Source: a virus
Lineage: Duplodnaviria; Heunggongvirae; Uroviricota; Caudoviricetes
Length of the DNA: 6,129 nucleotides
Virus record (IMG/VR): IMGVR_UViG_2778261202_000005
Reading direction: 5' to 3' (one strand)
The notes beneath the pieces were generated by a model. It made no database searches and had not been told where the DNA came from. It was given only the letters and a program-made list of their open reading frames with translations. A program made the position numbers and the translations under genes. This document shows, in pieces, positions 1,974 to 6,129 of this stretch (position 1 is its first letter; each line of letters begins with the position of its first letter).

Positions 1974-2219
1974 ATGCTTCAAATGCTGACACTTGAGGAA
2001 TGGGCTGCGGAAAAATTTAGGAGTAATCCTCCAAGTGTGTCCACATTGCGCCGTTATGCTAAGCAGAATTTATTTTGTCCACCGGCAATGAAACAAGGTC
2101 GACTATGGCGAGTGCGTGAGGACGCAGAGTTAGTTGGGGAATTAGTTACCCCTGTCATCAAGAAAAGTGATTCTATTATTCTACAAAGGATTTTAAGTAA
2201 TGGCAGCCAGACCACGTAA
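1974..2219 (+). CDS. xis: Excisionase (lambda Xis-like)
   Basis: The segment MLTLEEW...TLRRYAKQNLFCPPAMKQGRLWRVRE aligns by eye with lambda Xis (MYLTLQEW...TVRRWVRECRIFPPPVKDGREYLF). It overlaps the int start by 20 bp, as in lambda. The start is ambiguous: in-frame ATGs at 1959, 1974 (GAGG 9 nt upstream) and 1983 (best homology alignment). Confidence 0.8.
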   Translation: MLQMLTLEEWAAEKFRSNPPSVSTLRRYAKQNLFCPPAMKQGRLWRVREDAELVGELVTPVIKKSDSIILQRILSNGSQTT

Positions 2220-3327
2220 AAATAATGTTTCAGTCCCGAACTTGTATCCGCTCTATAGCAGAAAAGTAAATAAAGTCTATTGGCGATATAAGCATCCAGT
2301 GACCGGGAAGTTTCATTCTTTGGGCACAAACGAAGCTGAAGCCATTGCCATTGCCACTGAGGCCAATACACGCCTGGCTGAGCAAAGAACCCGGCAGATT
2401 CTGGCCATCAGTGACAGGATAGCAACCAGCAAAGGGAAAGCAATCACAACGTCAACCTGGTTAGATCGCTACCAAGCGATCCAGGATGACCGACTGAAAA
2501 GTGGTGATATAAGACTCAACACTTATAAGCAGAAAGCCAAACCAGTATCCTTACTTAGGGAACGAGTAGGAATGAAGTTGATCTCAGCCGTTGATGTCAG
2601 AGATATAGCACAATTGCTTGACGAGTATATCGCTGCCGGGCAGCCGAGAATGGCGCAAGTCGTAAGGTCTGTATTGATCGATGTATTTAAGGAAGCACAG
2701 CATTATGGCGAAGTTCCGCCAGGGTATAACCCTGCTCTTGCGACGAAGCAACCCAGACGGAAAATCACCCGTCAACGCCTCAGCCTCGAAGAATGGAAAA
2801 AAATCTTCGATATCGCAGATGCCAGTCATCGTTACATGGGAAATGCCATGCTCCTAGCATTGGTCACTGGACAGCGTTTGGGGGACATATCTAAAATGAA
2901 ATTCAGCGATATTTGGGATGACCATCTACATGTCGAACAGGAAAAGACTGGAAGCAAAATCGCAATTCCTCTTTCTCTTCGCCTCAATACGATTAACTGG
3001 AGTTTACGCGATATAATAGCCCGCTGCCGTGACTATGCAGTCAGTCCATACCTAGTGCATTTTTTCCGTTCAACTTCACAAGCAGAACGTGGGGCACAGG
3101 TTAAATCCAATACATTGACGATGAACTTTAGCAAAGCGCGAGACTTGGCCGGAATTGATTGGGGTGATGGAACTCCAGCAACTTTCCATGAACAAAGATC
3201 TTTATCTGAGCGCCTTTATAGGGAACAAGGGATTGATACGCAAAAACTACTCGGACATAAATCTCCTAATCAGACAGCTAGATATCATGATGATCGTGGA
3301 AAAGATTGGGTAACTCTAGCAATTTGA
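2200..3327 (+). CDS. int: Site-specific tyrosine recombinase, lambda Int family (375 aa)
   Basis: Clear similarity to lambda Int along the whole length: N-terminal arm-binding region (PNLY), WLDRY, HVEQEKTGSKIAIP versus lambda YVEQSKTGVKIAIP, and the C-terminal catalytic region PATFHEQRSLSERLYREQ...LLGHKS...ARYHDDRGKDW with the tyrosine in RYHDDRG. Confidence 0.95.
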   Translation: MAARPRKNNVSVPNLYPLYSRKVNKVYWRYKHPVTGKFHSLGTNEAEAIAIATEANTRLAEQRTRQILAISDRIATSKGKAITTSTWLDRYQAIQDDRLKSGDIRLNTYKQKAKPVSLLRERVGMKLISAVDVRDIAQLLDEYIAAGQPRMAQVVRSVLIDVFKEAQHYGEVPPGYNPALATKQPRRKITRQRLSLEEWKKIFDIADASHRYMGNAMLLALVTGQRLGDISKMKFSDIWDDHLHVEQEKTGSKIAIPLSLRLNTINWSLRDIIARCRDYAVSPYLVHFFRSTSQAERGAQVKSNTLTMNFSKARDLAGIDWGDGTPATFHEQRSLSERLYREQGIDTQKLLGHKSPNQTARYHDDRGKDWVTLAI

Positions 3328-3369
3328 TTTTTATATTTTTATTAAAAATTAAAAAATTCAGACGCATCA

Positions 3370-3382
3370 TATCAAAAATTTA
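3370..3382 (+). promoter_or_regulatory. IHF-binding-site-like motif
   Basis: TATCAAAAATTTA fits the IHF consensus WATCAANNNNTTR. Such matches also occur by chance in AT-rich DNA. Confidence 0.3.
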
Positions 3383-3411
3383 TTAGTAAAATAGATAACT
3401 AATATTTTTCT

Positions 3412-3428
3412 TGGGGGGAGGAGCCCCC
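3412..3428. terminator. GC hairpin (GGGGGG-AGGAG-CCCCCC) between the convergent int and membrane-protein genes
   Basis: A 6-bp all-GC stem with a 5-nt loop inside otherwise very AT-rich DNA. It lies between the 3' ends of int (+) and the 4TM gene (-). No clean T-tract follows on either strand, so it may be a structural or processing element rather than a canonical terminator. Confidence 0.3.
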
Positions 3429-3461
3429 CGCACATTATATTGAAGATTAATAACTGATATA

Positions 3462-4427
3462 TCATTTCTTAAATTTAAGAATTTCTTTTAAGGCTTCTAC
3501 TATATTTTTATCCCCATCCATGCTAATTTTCTCCTTCTCAAGAGAAACCGTAGTCTGCCCTTTTTCAAGAACAAAATTACGTTCTGTAGCCATGAGATTT
3601 TTAATAACCTCACCCATTAAGTCTTCGTTTCTAATGCCCTTAAGAAACTTTATCGCCAAAACTTTGGAATCGATATTGGTAAGCTCATTTTGAAAATACT
3701 TGACCTCATCAAAACCATTTTTGTACAACTTCAAGAAGAAATAAGCAAATAGTTCAACGACAATTACAAATGATAATTTGGGGGCCATGTGAAGTATATA
3801 TTCAAGCTTATCATTTGTGTTAATAGCATTTGTAACTGAATATCCAAGGTAAAGTATCCCACAAAAAGCAATAAATGCACCTAAAACCAGATTAACCCCA
3901 CCACGTCTATTTAATCTATTTATTTCATTTTCTAAACGATATACAATATCATTATAGTGTTTACTAATTTCTATTTGATTTCTAAACGAATTTATATCAT
4001 TTTTCAAACTTAAATCTGCAGCCAAGAGAGTATTGCCTACAATCTTTTTTTTAGCATTATCGATCAACTCTTGCCTTTCTTTTGATGTGAGTAAAACACC
4101 ATTTAAATCTTTCGAATCATTTGTAACTAGTTGATTAAACTCTTGCTTTAAGGAGTCTAATTCTGACTTTAACTCTTCATATGAGTTAACATTCTTGTTT
4201 TTACTTTCACCTATTCCTTTATTAACATAATTTAATAAAAATGCTGCCATAAAAGTTAAAATCAGAGTTGCAATAAAGAAACTATTTTCATCTTGAAGTA
4301 TTTTAGCAACAGTGGAAAAATAACTTACGAGAAGAGGCTGAGCATTATAAAGCCCCATTCCTAACAAAACTGCAATTGCCGTACCTAAAACGAACCTTAC
4401 TTCTTGTCTTTTTAGTAACCTATTCAT
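3462..4427 (-). CDS. Four-helix membrane protein with a central coiled-coil-like cytoplasmic segment (321 aa); candidate membrane effector
   Basis: Complete ORF (ATG 4425-4427, stop 3462-3464), very AT-rich. Predicted hydrophobic helices at about residues 12-37, 50-68, 178-198 and 218-235. A positively charged N-terminus (KRQEVR) suggests N-in topology. Residues 70-175 are charged and heptad-like; a C-terminal soluble domain of about 85 aa follows. No enzymatic motif is recognisable by eye. Confidence 0.85.
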   Translation of the reverse strand: MNRLLKRQEVRFVLGTAIAVLLGMGLYNAQPLLVSYFSTVAKILQDENSFFIATLILTFMAAFLLNYVNKGIGESKNKNVNSYEELKSELDSLKQEFNQLVTNDSKDLNGVLLTSKERQELIDNAKKKIVGNTLLAADLSLKNDINSFRNQIEISKHYNDIVYRLENEINRLNRRGGVNLVLGAFIAFCGILYLGYSVTNAINTNDKLEYILHMAPKLSFVIVVELFAYFFLKLYKNGFDEVKYFQNELTNIDSKVLAIKFLKGIRNEDLMGEVIKNLMATERNFVLEKGQTTVSLEKEKISMDGDKNIVEALKEILKFKK

Positions 4428-4544
4428 TATGACACCATATGTTATTATTTAACGTTTTATTAAATTCAAAATACTGCCCGAGATTTTAATACTCATAACA
4501 AAATAAGAATTAATATACAAAATTTTTCATACTACAAGCAAGGC

Positions 4545-4576
4545 TTTGATAAATTGTTTTGATAACGATTTGATAA
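4545..4576. promoter_or_regulatory. Array of three TTTGATAA direct repeats upstream of the membrane-protein gene
   Basis: TTTGATAA occurs at 4545-4552, 4558-4565 and 4569-4576 (spacing 13 and 11 bp), with a fourth copy at 4623-4630. The array sits 118-150 bp upstream of the minus-strand start at 4427. The first copy (TTGATAAATT) also resembles the H-NS high-affinity motif TCGATAAATT. Confidence 0.3.
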
Positions 4577-4595
4577 CCGTTAGAAATCTAATAAT

Positions 4596-4626
4596 AAAAA
4601 CGGGAGCCATCAGACTTCCGTTTTTG
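4596..4626. terminator. Bidirectional intrinsic-terminator-like hairpin
   Basis: AAAAACGGGAG-(8-nt loop)-CTTCCGTTTTT: an A-tract, a stem of about 11 bp with one wobble or mismatch, then a T-tract. On the minus strand the stem is followed by TTTTTATTATT. It lies about 365 nt downstream of the NTase stop and 170 nt upstream of the membrane-protein start. Confidence 0.45.
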
Positions 4627-4930
4627 ATAACCCGGAGCCTAGATTTGGCTACCCCAGCAGGAAGATGCAACGTCCACGATTGTCACAAATCAGGCTGGCC
4701 CGAGGCAGAATGGCGACTGTGAGGGAGAAACGAAAGTTCACACTCGTTCTCACTGCTGATGGGGGGTTCACTAACAATCTCAAGCACTAATTAATGGACG
4801 AAACTCTACACAAAGCCCCATTTTGTAGGAAAACTGGTAACGGATTAGTAATACTACCCGGCCAGAACATGACCGACCGGGTAAAAAAATATCCTGACGC
4901 TACTAAGCCTTTAAGATTTGACTAACCTAG
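4596..4930 (-). ncRNA. Candidate structured non-coding RNA or long 3' UTR element (hypothetical)
   Basis: A GC-rich island (about 50% GC by eye, against about 25-30% in the flanks) with no ORF of 60 aa or more. On the minus strand it is bracketed by promoter-like -10 boxes upstream and the terminator-like hairpin downstream. It contains a further hairpin (ACCCGG...CCGGGT at 4856-4882). Boundaries are approximate and expression is unproven. Confidence 0.25.
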
Positions 4931-4937
4931 TGCTTAC

Positions 4938-4977
4938 ATTATAGAGAACTGCTTATGCCTTCTAAATTATAGAGTAA
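4938..4977 (-). promoter_or_regulatory. Tandem sigma70-like promoter elements just downstream of the NTase stop
   Basis: Two perfect TATAAT hexamers on the minus strand (plus-strand coordinates 4966-4971 and 4938-4943), each in a CTCTATAAT context. The second has a TTTAGA -35-like hexamer 17 bp upstream (4/6 match to TTGACA). Confidence 0.3.
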
Positions 4978-4989
4978 AAATACTCACCA

Positions 4990-6129
4990 CTAAAATACAA
5001 CTTGCTTCCTTAGTAAATCACCTCTAGCATTTGAGTAATATTCAGTCGAATTGCCAGTAACTTCCCGGAGTACTTCTGTTACAAGGTTATTTAGTATTCC
5101 CGTAAGTTTAAGAAACTCTCCATATGAATTAGGTTTCTCAAATATCTTTCTGGTACCGTTCGGCACATCGAGCTGCATTGCAGCATCATGATCCTGGGCT
5201 AAGTGATTTAGCCAGCGGTGAGTCTCAACAAGTACAGCAAGTTCATAGTATGTACTATGACGGAGATTATTAGCATCTGCATGGTACATTAGTGAAGCAA
5301 TATCATAGCTGCTTAGATCAATACTCGAACCTTCGTCTCCACTGTCTGCTTTCAGGGTTTTGAGCATGCGAATTGATTTTCTTAATCCACCATTGCATTG
5401 ATCGCATTTGTCTTTGATACGTTGCATGTGGAGGAACGGTTCATTGTAGATACGCTCTCGTTTGTTTTTATCAATTATGGTAACTCCACGATGTTCTTCT
5501 TTTTTTGTGAGTTGGTACTCTTTCGTATCCCACCATATGCCTGGCACTACATCAACTTCTCTTTGAAGACTCCCCCCCGTTATTCTCAAGGACTTGGCGT
5601 TATTATCGTCAACCTGAGCAGCAGGAAATGTCATTTTTAGAGCATCTCGAGCTGCACGCCTAAGTTCAATGATGACGTCTCGGCCATCTTTCTCAGCTGC
5701 ACTATAGCTGCCAACTCCACCGCTATCATACATAAGCATCTGAGTATCAATAATTAAAAGATCTACATCACTGAAACCTTTGATATGGATATCTAGGGGA
5801 ACAGAACCTTGTACCCGAAAATCTAGGTTTAGGTCTAATTTCTTAGTCAGCTGATTTTCAATACGATACGCGGTTTCGAATGAGATCTCTGTATAGCGGG
5901 GGTCAACTGGTTGCATCGCACCAATGACATACCGGATAGCTGAATCGTCTCTTCCTCTAGACTCCCAACTTTCATTAAGCTCAAGAGCATCTTCAAGCAA
6001 TGCATATTTTTCAAGGCCATCATATCTTTGATTACTCATTGATTCTGTGGCTACTCGCAACTGATCATATGTCCCTTTACGACGTGACTTCATGCGTTCA
6101 ATACGCGAACTATATGATGAATTAGACAT
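4990..6129 (-). CDS. Pol-beta superfamily nucleotidyltransferase, CD-NTase/SMODS-like (379 aa)
   Basis: Motif QGSVPLDIHIKGFSDVDLLI (G108-S109, 11 residues, then D121-V-D123) and a third acidic residue in EVDVVPG (D193) match the GS...DxD...D active-site pattern of cGAS/DncV/OAS-like enzymes. An alpha-helical C-terminal region of about 180 aa follows. The ATG is at the window edge (6127-6129), so an upstream extension or upstream partner genes cannot be excluded. Confidence 0.85.
   Translation of the reverse strand: MSNSSYSSRIERMKSRRKGTYDQLRVATESMSNQRYDGLEKYALLEDALELNESWESRGRDDSAIRYVIGAMQPVDPRYTEISFETAYRIENQLTKKLDLNLDFRVQGSVPLDIHIKGFSDVDLLIIDTQMLMYDSGGVGSYSAAEKDGRDVIIELRRAARDALKMTFPAAQVDDNNAKSLRITGGSLQREVDVVPGIWWDTKEYQLTKKEEHRGVTIIDKNKRERIYNEPFLHMQRIKDKCDQCNGGLRKSIRMLKTLKADSGDEGSSIDLSSYDIASLMYHADANNLRHSTYYELAVLVETHRWLNHLAQDHDAAMQLDVPNGTRKIFEKPNSYGEFLKLTGILNNLVTEVLREVTGNSTEYYSNARGDLLRKQVVF

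Follow-up and report, generated by a model that had tools for sequence, protein, structure and literature searches.

Does a membrane protein encoded downstream of a CD-NTase in a prophage belong to the signalling system beside it, or does it act on its own? The question is raised by a 321-aa open reading frame on the minus strand (3462-4427) of a 6,129-nucleotide stretch of viral DNA, analysed over its whole length and referred to here as the window. The first-pass annotation had proposed that the product is a membrane-depolarizing effector of the neighbouring NTase, which could oligomerize into a pore and/or bind a nucleotide or oligonucleotide signal. The evidence assembled below separates the gene from the cyclase and points to an autonomous, separately transcribed prophage cargo encoding a predicted single-protein, membrane-acting anti-phage module, a reading to which a probability of about 0.5 is assigned.

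A widespread family of four-helix membrane proteins

The open reading frame starts with ATG, is complete and represents a real gene, with close homologues down to E 1e-196. Its product is RefSeq WP_001080914.1 ('hypothetical protein') and a member of PHROG 5157, whose HMM aligns residues 46-320 with profile positions 54-329 of 331 (E 3.3e-75) and also matches 52/52 aligned family members. Relatives are numerous (465 matches in the 90% database, 2,395 representatives at 50% identity), and the ∼2,400 clusters at 50% identity are spread over Proteobacteria, Bacteroidota, Acidobacteriota, Planctomycetota, Verrucomicrobiota and other phyla. Since a tblastn search of 50,697 GenBank phage records returned zero matches, these relatives sit in prophages and uncultivated viral contigs and not in deposited phage genomes.

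Four hydrophobic helices are found at about residues 12-34, 50-68, 178-197 and 216-235, so that the open reading frame, its homologues and its hydrophobicity all agree with the four-helix membrane gene first proposed. In 19-residue Kyte-Doolittle windows, maxima lie at 47-69 (2.14), 176-199 (2.09) and 214-236 (1.6-1.8), the first segment (11-34) being the weakest (1.46). Four peaks are the family norm, as they occur in 165/223 full-length members. Lysine and arginine are distributed unevenly, with 4 at the N-terminus, 18 in segment 69-177, 16 in the tail and 1 in each of the short loops 36-49 and 198-215; this pattern follows the positive-inside rule for a predicted topology with both termini inside. 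The AlphaFold2 model is all-helical (pLDDT 78.6; helices at 8-28, 30-46, 48-69, 82-102, 115-199, 207-262, 268-283 and 293-320), with a low-confidence break at 103-113.

From hydrophobicity, model and alignment, the minus-strand gene can be divided into four parts. The N-terminal helix pair, with its short periplasmic loop, is encoded at 4224-4394; it is followed by a charged cytoplasmic helical segment (residues 69-177; 3897-4223), a TM3-loop-TM4 hairpin (178-235; 3723-3896) and a cytoplasmic helical tail (236-321; 3465-3722). Of the layout initially described, the four helices, the charged helical middle and a tail of 86 aa, likewise helical, are retained, and a caveat applies to the coiled coil: clear heptad spacing is limited to 82-102 and 145-172, and the heptad signal over 75-177 is not clearly higher than in shuffled sequences, 0.05-0.09 of which reach the observed value.

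Conservation is concentrated in the TM3-TM4 hairpin (P216, E225, FFL) and in two cytoplasmic motifs. The N-terminal helix pair is poorly conserved in the family, except, where TM2 ends, for Y67 and the residue after it (V68 in the window protein, L in 94% of diverse members); the pair is proposed to be a variable sensor or anchor. In segment 69-177 the last 20 residues are conserved (R164, E168, R175-G176) and form one helix that continues into TM3. The hairpin itself conserves N179, L180, G183, G190, L194, P216, the membrane-embedded E225 and the run from F227 to Y235. Both tail motifs are near-invariant: the first is KYFQNExTN (K243 to N251), the second T281-E-R-N284 ... K289-G-Q-T-T293 ... 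E297 (nt 3537-3587). Among members less than 50% identical, the mean frequency of the commonest residue is highest in TERN...KGQTT (0.82) and second highest in TM4 (0.79); the N-terminal half is 12-33% conserved in these members, compared with ∼80% for TM4 and the TERN motif.

Profile and fold comparisons place the protein in no meaningful family, as judged by Pfam, NCBIfam and PADLOC scans of the 321-aa protein and 52 relatives. Sub-threshold matches among the 52 relatives concern DUF2207_C (13/52), Orbi_NS3 (3/52), SLATT_1 (1/52) and ZorA (1/52, E 4e-4). A profile search of all PDB sequences gave nothing below E 0.05, only coiled-coil noise, and no significant sequence or fold match was found to CBASS effectors, SLATT, MotA/ExbB or AbiZ/DUF6161; with the e14 membrane protein YmfE, hhalign gives a probability of 9% or less. 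Homology to a characterized transporter or chemoreceptor, which the first-pass annotation had named as counting against its proposal, was looked for as well: no Pfam or NCBIfam match rises above noise, the GPH symporter model reaches 13.6 bits where 231 are required, and chemoreceptor fold matches of the model all have E >0.3.

A probable transcription unit of its own beside a complete CBASS operon

The gene is located in the icd-proximal arm of an e14-type prophage. On one side, it is convergent with the tyrosine integrase gene intE (2200-3327, plus strand), beyond which lies xisE (1959-2219), and it is distant from the prophage lysis genes. Between the convergent stops, a GC-rich hairpin (GGGGGG-CUCCU-CCCCCC, 3413-3429) may serve as a shared, non-canonical terminator; the consensus terminator scan scored none at this position. 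On the other side, the AT-rich region upstream of the gene (4428-4595, minus strand) has a conserved counterpart in the spacer between icd and the gene in Enterobacter sichuanensis and E. cloacae; the gene's own promoter presumably lies here. A consensus promoter scan gave nothing convincing directly upstream, and aligning three upstream regions settled none.

Further upstream, an intrinsic terminator hairpin followed by UUUUUAUUAUU (4596-4625, minus strand; z −2.5) is a second copy of the post-icd terminator of e14-type elements, and from its sequence is predicted to insulate the gene from the CBASS operon. A duplicated piece of the icd-proximal prophage arm (copy B, 4542-4607) is by sequence comparison ∼79% identical to what directly follows icd in this genome (L001 11754-11816), with 82% identity to K-12 e14. 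Copies A and B of this icd-terminator/arm segment flank the Cap15-cyclase cassette. Composition differs too: GC content is 27-33% in the block of the 321-aa gene, compared with about 39-44% in the cyclase and 42-49% in the backbone of the prophage to the left of the integrase end. There are no tRNA genes within the window.

The CD-NTase of this two-gene CBASS (4990-6129, minus strand; PADLOC Cyclase, E 6e-137) lies outside the module of the 321-aa gene, which begins 562 bp downstream of it, behind the terminator and the duplicated arm segment. Directly upstream of the cyclase, just beyond the window end, is Cap15 (PF18153, E 2e-37; PADLOC CBASS '2TM effector', E 1e-80), which overlaps the cyclase start by 8 bp. 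Adjacency alone can thus misassign CBASS effectors when a window cuts off the true one. Linkage to the cyclase is not conserved: a cyclase similar to that of the window occurs in only 3/175 loci with a relative of the 321-aa protein, all identical E. coli prophage copies, and a similar cyclase or Cap15 is absent from 172/172 non-identical loci, as counted by tblastn with a single cyclase query, which very distant CD-NTases would escape. In viral contigs, looking for more remote relatives of the cyclase yielded nothing beyond the three identical copies. The 321-aa gene is independent of the Cap15-cyclase pair.

Single-gene cargo in varied mobile contexts

Relatives recur in mobile DNA without a constant companion. 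In Enterobacter cloacae the order is icd-gene-int, and the relative is the sole cargo between icd and an e14-type integrase. In Vibrio vulnificus it forms a single-gene integron cassette of 1.2 kb between two attC-like repeats. In a second E. coli prophage, which is unrelated to the first, a 45%-identical copy adjoins the integrase. Where an integrase was detectable, it was the adjacent open reading frame in 15/22 loci, and in viral contigs the gene lies <3 kb from the contig end in 39/79. No neighbour cluster recurs across 91 loci, so that a conserved partner gene is absent from this set, and across 80 species the genes directly beside the relatives are of varied kinds. Neighbours at the various loci include Kiwa KwaA/KwaB, a CAP12/Pycsar-type TIR and OLD-family nucleases; among the immediate neighbours in the 80 species, defence-like genes are nevertheless a minority, and many are housekeeping genes.

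With its upstream terminator, conserved AT-rich leader, atypical GC content and solo occurrence in varied mobile contexts, the gene has the features of a moron or mobile single-gene cassette. The arm between icd and int holds different cargo in different elements, i.e. Lit in K-12, Cap15-CBASS plus the 321-aa gene here, and in Enterobacter a gene of the 321-aa type, either by itself or accompanied by a TIR protein. This arm of e14-type prophages thus appears as a swap site for defence cargo.

A putative membrane-acting defence module

A prediction of defence function has been published independently. In Table S10 of the DefensePredictor study (Science 2026), WP_001080914.1 is listed as a 'predicted novel defense gene' with a mean log-odds of 10.2 (strict cutoff 4), a score that takes in neighbouring genes and GC content and may for this reason be inflated by the adjacent CBASS (PMC13092281). 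The mention comes from the supplementary table; neither the accession nor the PHROG identifier was found in the main texts of papers, and none of the systems tested in that study is a homologue of the protein (PMC13092281). The general idea of the first annotation, a non-enzymatic, oligomerizing, membrane-acting defence protein, agrees with this prediction and is plausible. Taken with context and conservation, the protein probably functions in defence, either by abortive infection or by exclusion.

A mechanism can be proposed on this basis. The gene would be a moron of the arm that runs from the icd attachment site to the integrase, and its product an inner-membrane protein with both termini in the cytoplasm, from a family that travels alone, being carried at the ends of prophages, in integron cassettes and in variable or defence islands. 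Sensing of an infection-linked change at the membrane would fall to the N-terminal half, which evolves fast and comprises TM1-TM2, the periplasmic loop and the middle helices. The conserved C-terminal half, comprising the juxtamembrane helix, the TM3-TM4 hairpin (E225, N179, P216) and the KYFQNExTN and TERN...KGQTT motifs, would then oligomerize and either make the membrane leaky to ions or bring lysis forward, so that infection would be aborted in a RexB- or AbiZ-like manner. In a close alternative within the same reading, the protein would block phage DNA entry (superinfection exclusion). Since the fold search with the monomer model gave no specific match, the pore idea derives from conservation only.

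A more ambitious version of the proposal is possible but doubtful. It holds that the family is a new and widespread single-protein anti-phage system, unrelated to CBASS effectors, SLATT, MotA/ExbB and AbiZ, in which TM3-TM4 (P216, E225) and TERN/KGQTT form an undescribed gated channel while the variable N-terminal half reads phage-induced membrane events. If the defence proposal is true, a self-contained immune module working at the membrane would be encoded by one small gene, which occurs on prophages, integrons and genomic islands of many phyla. The few single-protein membrane Abi/exclusion systems, such as RexB, AbiZ and DS-34, would then gain a new protein family and perhaps a new channel architecture.

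Competing explanations

Among the alternatives, a function outside defence is the most probable, though unlikely. The protein could control prophage lysis timing or a holin, respond to envelope stress or organize the membrane, its adjacency to int being incidental. The presence of the family in many phyla, often near housekeeping genes, and the modest share of defence-like neighbours would suit such a role, as would the domain scan of the 321-aa protein, in which no toxin, nuclease or signalling domain appears. The weak fold and profile resemblances of the family also include viroporin- or holin-like helical hairpins, among them the Orbi_NS3 matches already mentioned and matches, one member each, to Holin-X and to a PHROG holin. 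Placement, however, fits defence cargo better: the gene occupies the slot that lit fills in K-12 e14, adjoins integrases in two unrelated E. coli prophages, forms an integron cassette and can have Kiwa, TIR or OLD neighbours. Its convergence with int, remote from the prophage lysis genes, and the high independent DefensePredictor score also argue against a lysis or housekeeping function.

It is improbable that the protein is a MotA/ExbB/TolQ-like ion-channel stator that works by ion flow, like ZorA of the Zorya system. The topology is that of MotA (2TM, cytoplasmic loop, 2TM, cytoplasmic tail), and the UniRef name of one homologue is 'MotA/TolQ/ExbB proton channel domain-containing protein'. 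Weak Foldseek matches include chains of ExbB and TolQ (E 0.6-2, TM 0.23-0.31), hhalign aligns the helix before TM3, and TM3 itself, with the equivalent helix of ExbB/TolQ/MotA, PF01618 is found below threshold in 2/10 members (E 0.06-0.12) and ZorA in the single relative noted above. The last TM helix contains an acidic residue, and ExbB E176 is likewise an acidic residue in a TM helix. These resemblances do not reach significance: PF01618 matches 0/52 members at E ≤0.05, its best scores of 12.5-13.5 bits (2/10) remain below the cutoff of 22.9, and hhalign probabilities for E. coli TolQ, ExbB and MotA are 0.3-9%. A partner of the MotB/ExbD/TolR/ZorB type is not recurrent in the 91 loci, and the integron cassette holds one gene only.

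The least credible explanation, a CBASS effector or accessory that senses the cyclic nucleotide of the adjacent CD-NTase and depolarizes the membrane, can cite that the gene follows a genuine CD-NTase on the same strand in all E. coli contigs with this exact cyclase (no independent evidence, because all carry the same prophage) and that a class of multi-TM proteins is known among CBASS effectors, but it is largely refuted, together with the NTase-effector and product-binding claim of the first-pass annotation, by the cognate Cap15 overlapping the cyclase, the terminator, 562-bp gap and duplicated arm that part both modules, the 0/172 non-identical loci with a similar cyclase or Cap15, the solo occurrences, the zero PADLOC, Pfam (including S_4TM and Cap15) or NCBIfam matches of the window protein, the PADLOC Effector models matching 0/52 members (SLATT_1 only 1/52, at E 9e-4), and an all-helical model which, like the domain scans, shows no recognizable nucleotide-receptor domain.

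Comparison with known systems

PHROG 5157 is the family itself as known from phage genomes; its record carries no functional annotation and names the family only. The genuine Cap15 lies 2.3 kb from the 321-aa gene on the same prophage arm. Like other CBASS TM effectors (S-2TM-beta, S-4TM, SLATT), which are thought to kill through membrane disruption, it shares with the 321-aa protein the size and location of a small inner-membrane protein; unlike them, the latter has no matching HMM, no beta-barrel nucleotide receptor and no conserved linkage to a cyclase. MotA, ExbB, TolQ and ZorA have in common with it four TM helices, a long loop and tail in the cytoplasm, long helices that pass from the membrane into the cytoplasm and a conserved acidic residue in the last TM, whereas the 321-aa protein has neither a significant profile or fold match nor a partner subunit.

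Lit of prophage e14 is the positional analogue: on the icd-side arm, its gene likewise comes last among the cargo ahead of intE and is convergent with it. Lit acts in abortive infection as a zinc protease that cleaves EF-Tu. It is annotated in K-12 as a soluble 'cell death peptidase', and neither in sequence nor in structure is it related to the 321-aa protein.

The AbiZ/DUF6161 type, including DS-34 ('CITO', WP_000377448.1), offers a likeness of architecture. DS-34 differs in lacking the N-terminal TM pair as well as the KYFQNExTN and TERN motifs, and a CI-like repressor is encoded alongside it. The PADLOC scan of the 52 relatives gave no AbiZ match, and hhalign gives 0.07% against the DS-34 protein alone; with the DUF6161-like DS-34 family, TM3-loop-TM4 falls in register with the DS-34 hairpin at a probability of 22% over 98 columns, which is not significant. 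A published HHblits match of WP_001080914.1 to AbiZ has a probability of 68 at 9.7% coverage (PMC13092281), and the DS-34 and 321-aa families share a weak match to one part of Pfam DUF2207_C. AbiZ is reported to cause premature lysis together with a phage holin (PMC13064643). Both types are single prophage-borne proteins of ∼320 aa, in which a cytoplasmic coiled-coil region leads into a TM hairpin, with a conserved basic/aromatic cytoplasmic stretch behind it.

An autonomous membrane gene

The membrane gene (3462-4427, minus strand) is independent of the neighbouring CBASS, mobile by itself and partner-less. Alignment of its relatives indicates a protein with a variable N-terminal half as against a strongly conserved membrane hairpin and cytoplasmic motifs. 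We give this protein an even chance (roughly 0.5) of having a role in defence, where it would constitute a single-protein membrane defence module. It could instead serve a membrane function outside defence, which we regard as rather unlikely; the family is uncharacterised and has already been flagged as a defence candidate by a published model.

Architecture and conservation

The ORF encodes 321 aa with four hydrophobic segments detected by hydropathy, at 11-34 (weak, 1.46), 47-69, 176-199 and 214-236, and a four-TM pattern recurs in 165 of 223 full-length relatives. The layout described in the first-pass annotation, two helix pairs separated by a charged segment and followed by a soluble tail, is thus real overall. 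Basic residues are concentrated in the N-terminus, in 69-177 and in the tail and are nearly lacking from the two short loops, a distribution consistent with four membrane passes in N-in/C-in orientation, which places the middle segment and tail on the cytoplasmic side. An AlphaFold2 model built from 52 relatives is entirely helical (pLDDT 78.6), with one helix (115-199) running from the cytoplasm through TM3 and another (207-262) leading back through TM4. The coiled coil proposed for the middle segment holds in part: the stretches 82-102 and 145-172 show heptad spacing, but over the entire segment it is not clearly above that of shuffled sequence.

Conservation was scored as the mean frequency of the commonest residue among 198 relatives sharing under 50% identity with the window protein. 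The N-terminal half reaches 0.12-0.33, its sole conserved spot being Y67-V68, which closes TM2 and reads Y-L in the majority of members, whereas the values are 0.55 for the pre-TM3 helix with TM3, 0.79 for TM4, 0.68 for the helix following TM4 and 0.82 for the TERN...KGQTT stretch. Near-invariant positions are R164, E168, R175, N179, L180, G183, G190 and L194 before and within TM3; P216, E225, F227, F230-L232, L234 and Y235 in TM4 and its approach; and K243, Y244, Q246-E248, T250, N251, T281-N284, L287, T293 and E297 in the tail. The strong conservation of TM4 and its buried glutamate suggest a functional element rather than an anchor.

The window protein has no match in Pfam, NCBIfam or PADLOC. 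Among the 52 relatives, the sole recurrent Pfam match is to DUF2207_C (13 members, sub-threshold), accompanied by weak single matches to SLATT_1 and ZorA. Searched by sequence, the family profile found no solved structure; Foldseek against the PDB gave nothing below E 0.2 (the weak matches include ExbB/TolQ and chemoreceptors) and BFVD nothing significant (the weak ones include two SLATT proteins and bluetongue NS3). Profiles of E. coli TolQ, ExbB and MotA do align their stator helix to the pre-TM3 helix and TM3 of the family, at probabilities of 0.3-9% and in inconsistent registers, and PF01618 stays below threshold. These profile matches, all short of significance, together with the lack of a recurrent partner gene in 91 loci, argue against a MotA/ExbB-like stator, which we consider improbable.

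Prophage context and the CBASS pair

Within icd of Escherichia coli sits an e14-type lambdoid prophage, whose integrase end makes up the window; positions 3300-6129 share 99.9% identity with three complete chromosomes of this species. Their gene order is icd, a Cap15-family gene, the nucleotidyltransferase, a 'hypothetical protein' (the membrane gene), intE, xisE, yfdR and yfdQ; Pfam identifies the lambda-type integrase (2200-3327), the excisionase (1959-2219), the YfdR-like HD protein and DUF2303/YfdQ. The longest ORF of the YfdR-like HD hydrolase (1319-1918; 6083-6619 in L001, the matching E. coli locus) begins 63 nt ahead of the RefSeq start, giving 199 aa against 178 aa. A weak Rfam STnc100 match at 1245-1425 (E 0.11) is probably due to chance. 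The membrane gene and intE converge, and the interval separating their stop codons contains a GC-rich 6-bp hairpin (3413-3429), where the consensus scan called no terminator.

The window ends exactly at the nucleotidyltransferase start codon, so the gene upstream was hidden from the first-pass annotation. Located just past 6129 (L001 10823-11449), that gene overlaps the cyclase start by 8 bp and encodes a 208-aa protein with TM helices and a cyclic-dinucleotide receptor domain, which matches Cap15_CD_rec (E 2e-37), Cap15_TM and the PADLOC CBASS '2TM effector' (E 1e-80). The cyclase (4990-6129) is a genuine CD-NTase (PADLOC Cyclase, E 6e-137; NCBIfam CBASS-cyclase matches are weak). The two form a complete two-gene CBASS, effector first, with Cap15 as the true effector. 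From the cyclase stop to the membrane gene start there are 562 bp, GC content drops from about 39-44% over the cyclase to 27-33% over the membrane gene with its leader, and tblastn of 175 loci found the cyclase solely in three window-identical copies and Cap15 in none. The membrane protein had been proposed as an NTase-linked effector; the context contradicts this, since the cyclase has its cognate Cap15, the spacer contains a terminator and linkage occurs solely in identical copies, and a CBASS effector role is highly improbable. The other half of that interpretation, a membrane-acting, non-enzymatic protein, is plausible.

The terminator, an intrinsic one on the coding strand (4596-4625; stem then UUUUUAUUAUU, z -2.5), is followed by an AT-rich leader, and both are homologous to the spacer between the icd stop and the ortholog in Enterobacter sichuanensis and E. 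cloacae. Positions 4542-4607 repeat, at about 79% identity, the stretch that immediately follows icd in the same genome (L001 11754-11816) and are 82% identical to the post-icd sequence of K-12 e14. These imperfect direct copies of an icd-terminator/prophage-arm segment thus bracket the Cap15-cyclase pair, which resembles a nested insertion. Such an arrangement suggests that insertion or recombination brought the CBASS pair into an ancestral icd-gene-int order, as still found in Enterobacter.

The motif TTTGATAA occurs on the plus strand in three tandem copies at 4545-4576, spaced by 13 and 11 bp, and in a fourth at 4623-4630 past the hairpin; the window holds 5 against 0.64 expected. The tandem repeats are kept beside icd in K-12 e14 and in the same-genome copy, and mostly in E. 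cloacae, where one carries a single-base difference; they may serve the attachment region as IHF sites or as arm-type sites for the integrase. On the plus strand at 4477-4632, Rfam gives a match below threshold to STnc150, an Hfq-binding sRNA of Salmonella (40.7 bits, gathering score 60; E 4e-6). This match lies antisense to the membrane gene leader, overlaps the duplicated segment downstream of icd and probably reflects shared DNA of icd-linked elements, not a verified sRNA.

Family distribution and mobility

The family is large, with 465 matches in a database clustered at 90% and, at the 50% identity level, 2,395 representatives (1,744 with E below 1e-10); members come from Gamma-, Beta- and Alphaproteobacteria, Bacteroidota, Acidobacteriota, Planctomycetota, Verrucomicrobiota, Nitrospirota, Desulfobacterota and Campylobacterota. 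PHROG 5157 (function unknown) is matched by 52/52 aligned members, and public names are 'hypothetical protein' or stray labels such as DUF3810, chemotaxis protein and MotA/TolQ/ExbB. In two loci, L030 (Pseudomonas, about 7480-8492) and L032 (Metapseudomonas, about 7550-8648), the gene is divided between two neighbouring ORFs, each of which matches the family profile; such copies have probably suffered a frameshift or are decaying.

By its varying contents, the arm from icd to the e14-type integrase is a cargo swap site. It carries ymfD-ymfE-lit in K-12 (L101 1375-4680), with lit in the slot before intE; Cap15-cyclase and the membrane gene in the window (3328-6129); the membrane gene (58% identical) as sole cargo before e14-type int and xis in E. 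cloacae (L094 7802-9092); and the membrane gene (83% identical) followed by a CAP12/Pycsar-type TIR protein in E. sichuanensis (L008 6803-9517), where int is a remnant. Elsewhere, a 45%-identical copy stands alone between DUF551 and a P4-type integrase in a second E. coli prophage, and a family gene directly follows Kiwa KwaA/KwaB in Vreelandella. In Vibrio vulnificus (L011 1-15041; L010 and L012 likewise) the gene (7001-8041) lies in a chromosomal integron of about 22 attC-like repeats, each about 120 nt, flanked by those at 6833-6968 and 8032-8164, so the family belongs to the integron cassette pool; neighbouring cassettes include ParE/Phd and MazG-like genes.

When ORFs called in 91 loci were clustered, no cluster except the family itself was common to more than 8 loci, apparent five-locus clusters all coming from five redundant E. 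coli contigs. No Pfam or PADLOC family appears in more than 3 of 145 immediate neighbours from 80 species. On viral contigs, the gene lies less than 3 kb from the contig end in 39 of 79 cases, and the integrase is the adjacent ORF in 15 of the 22 loci where one is detectable. These contexts identify the gene as an autonomous unit that moves alone.

Published prediction and comparison with known systems

The exact window protein, WP_001080914.1 (cluster representative WP_057108767.1), is listed in Table S10 of DefensePredictor (DeWeirdt, Mahoney and Laub, Science 2026, PMC13092281) as a 'predicted novel defense gene', with a mean log-odds of 10.2 against a strict cutoff of 4. Its best known-defence similarity there, to AbiZ/DUF6161 (coverage 9.7%, probability 68), is not significant. 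The protein is absent from the 94 transcription units tested in that work, and family motifs were not found among the supplement sequences searched, some of them partial. One validated system, DS-34, consists of a CI-like repressor and a 323-aa protein (PMC13092281), the latter with a coiled coil, a TM hairpin and a DUF6161-like region. Profile-profile comparison with an alignment of its family gave a probability of 22% over 98 columns, with both TM hairpins in register, and points to an architectural resemblance, homology not being demonstrated.

Tentatively, the variable half would act as the sensor of some event at the inner membrane linked to infection, and the conserved half would form oligomers that leak ions or hasten lysis; exclusion of incoming DNA would be a close alternative. 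The defence module proposed here would be of a kind already known, the prophage-borne single-protein membrane Abi or exclusion factor. Ion leak or accelerated lysis is likewise the action ascribed to RexB and AbiZ. For AbiZ, lysis is reported to come too early through joint action with the holin of the phage (PMC13064643).
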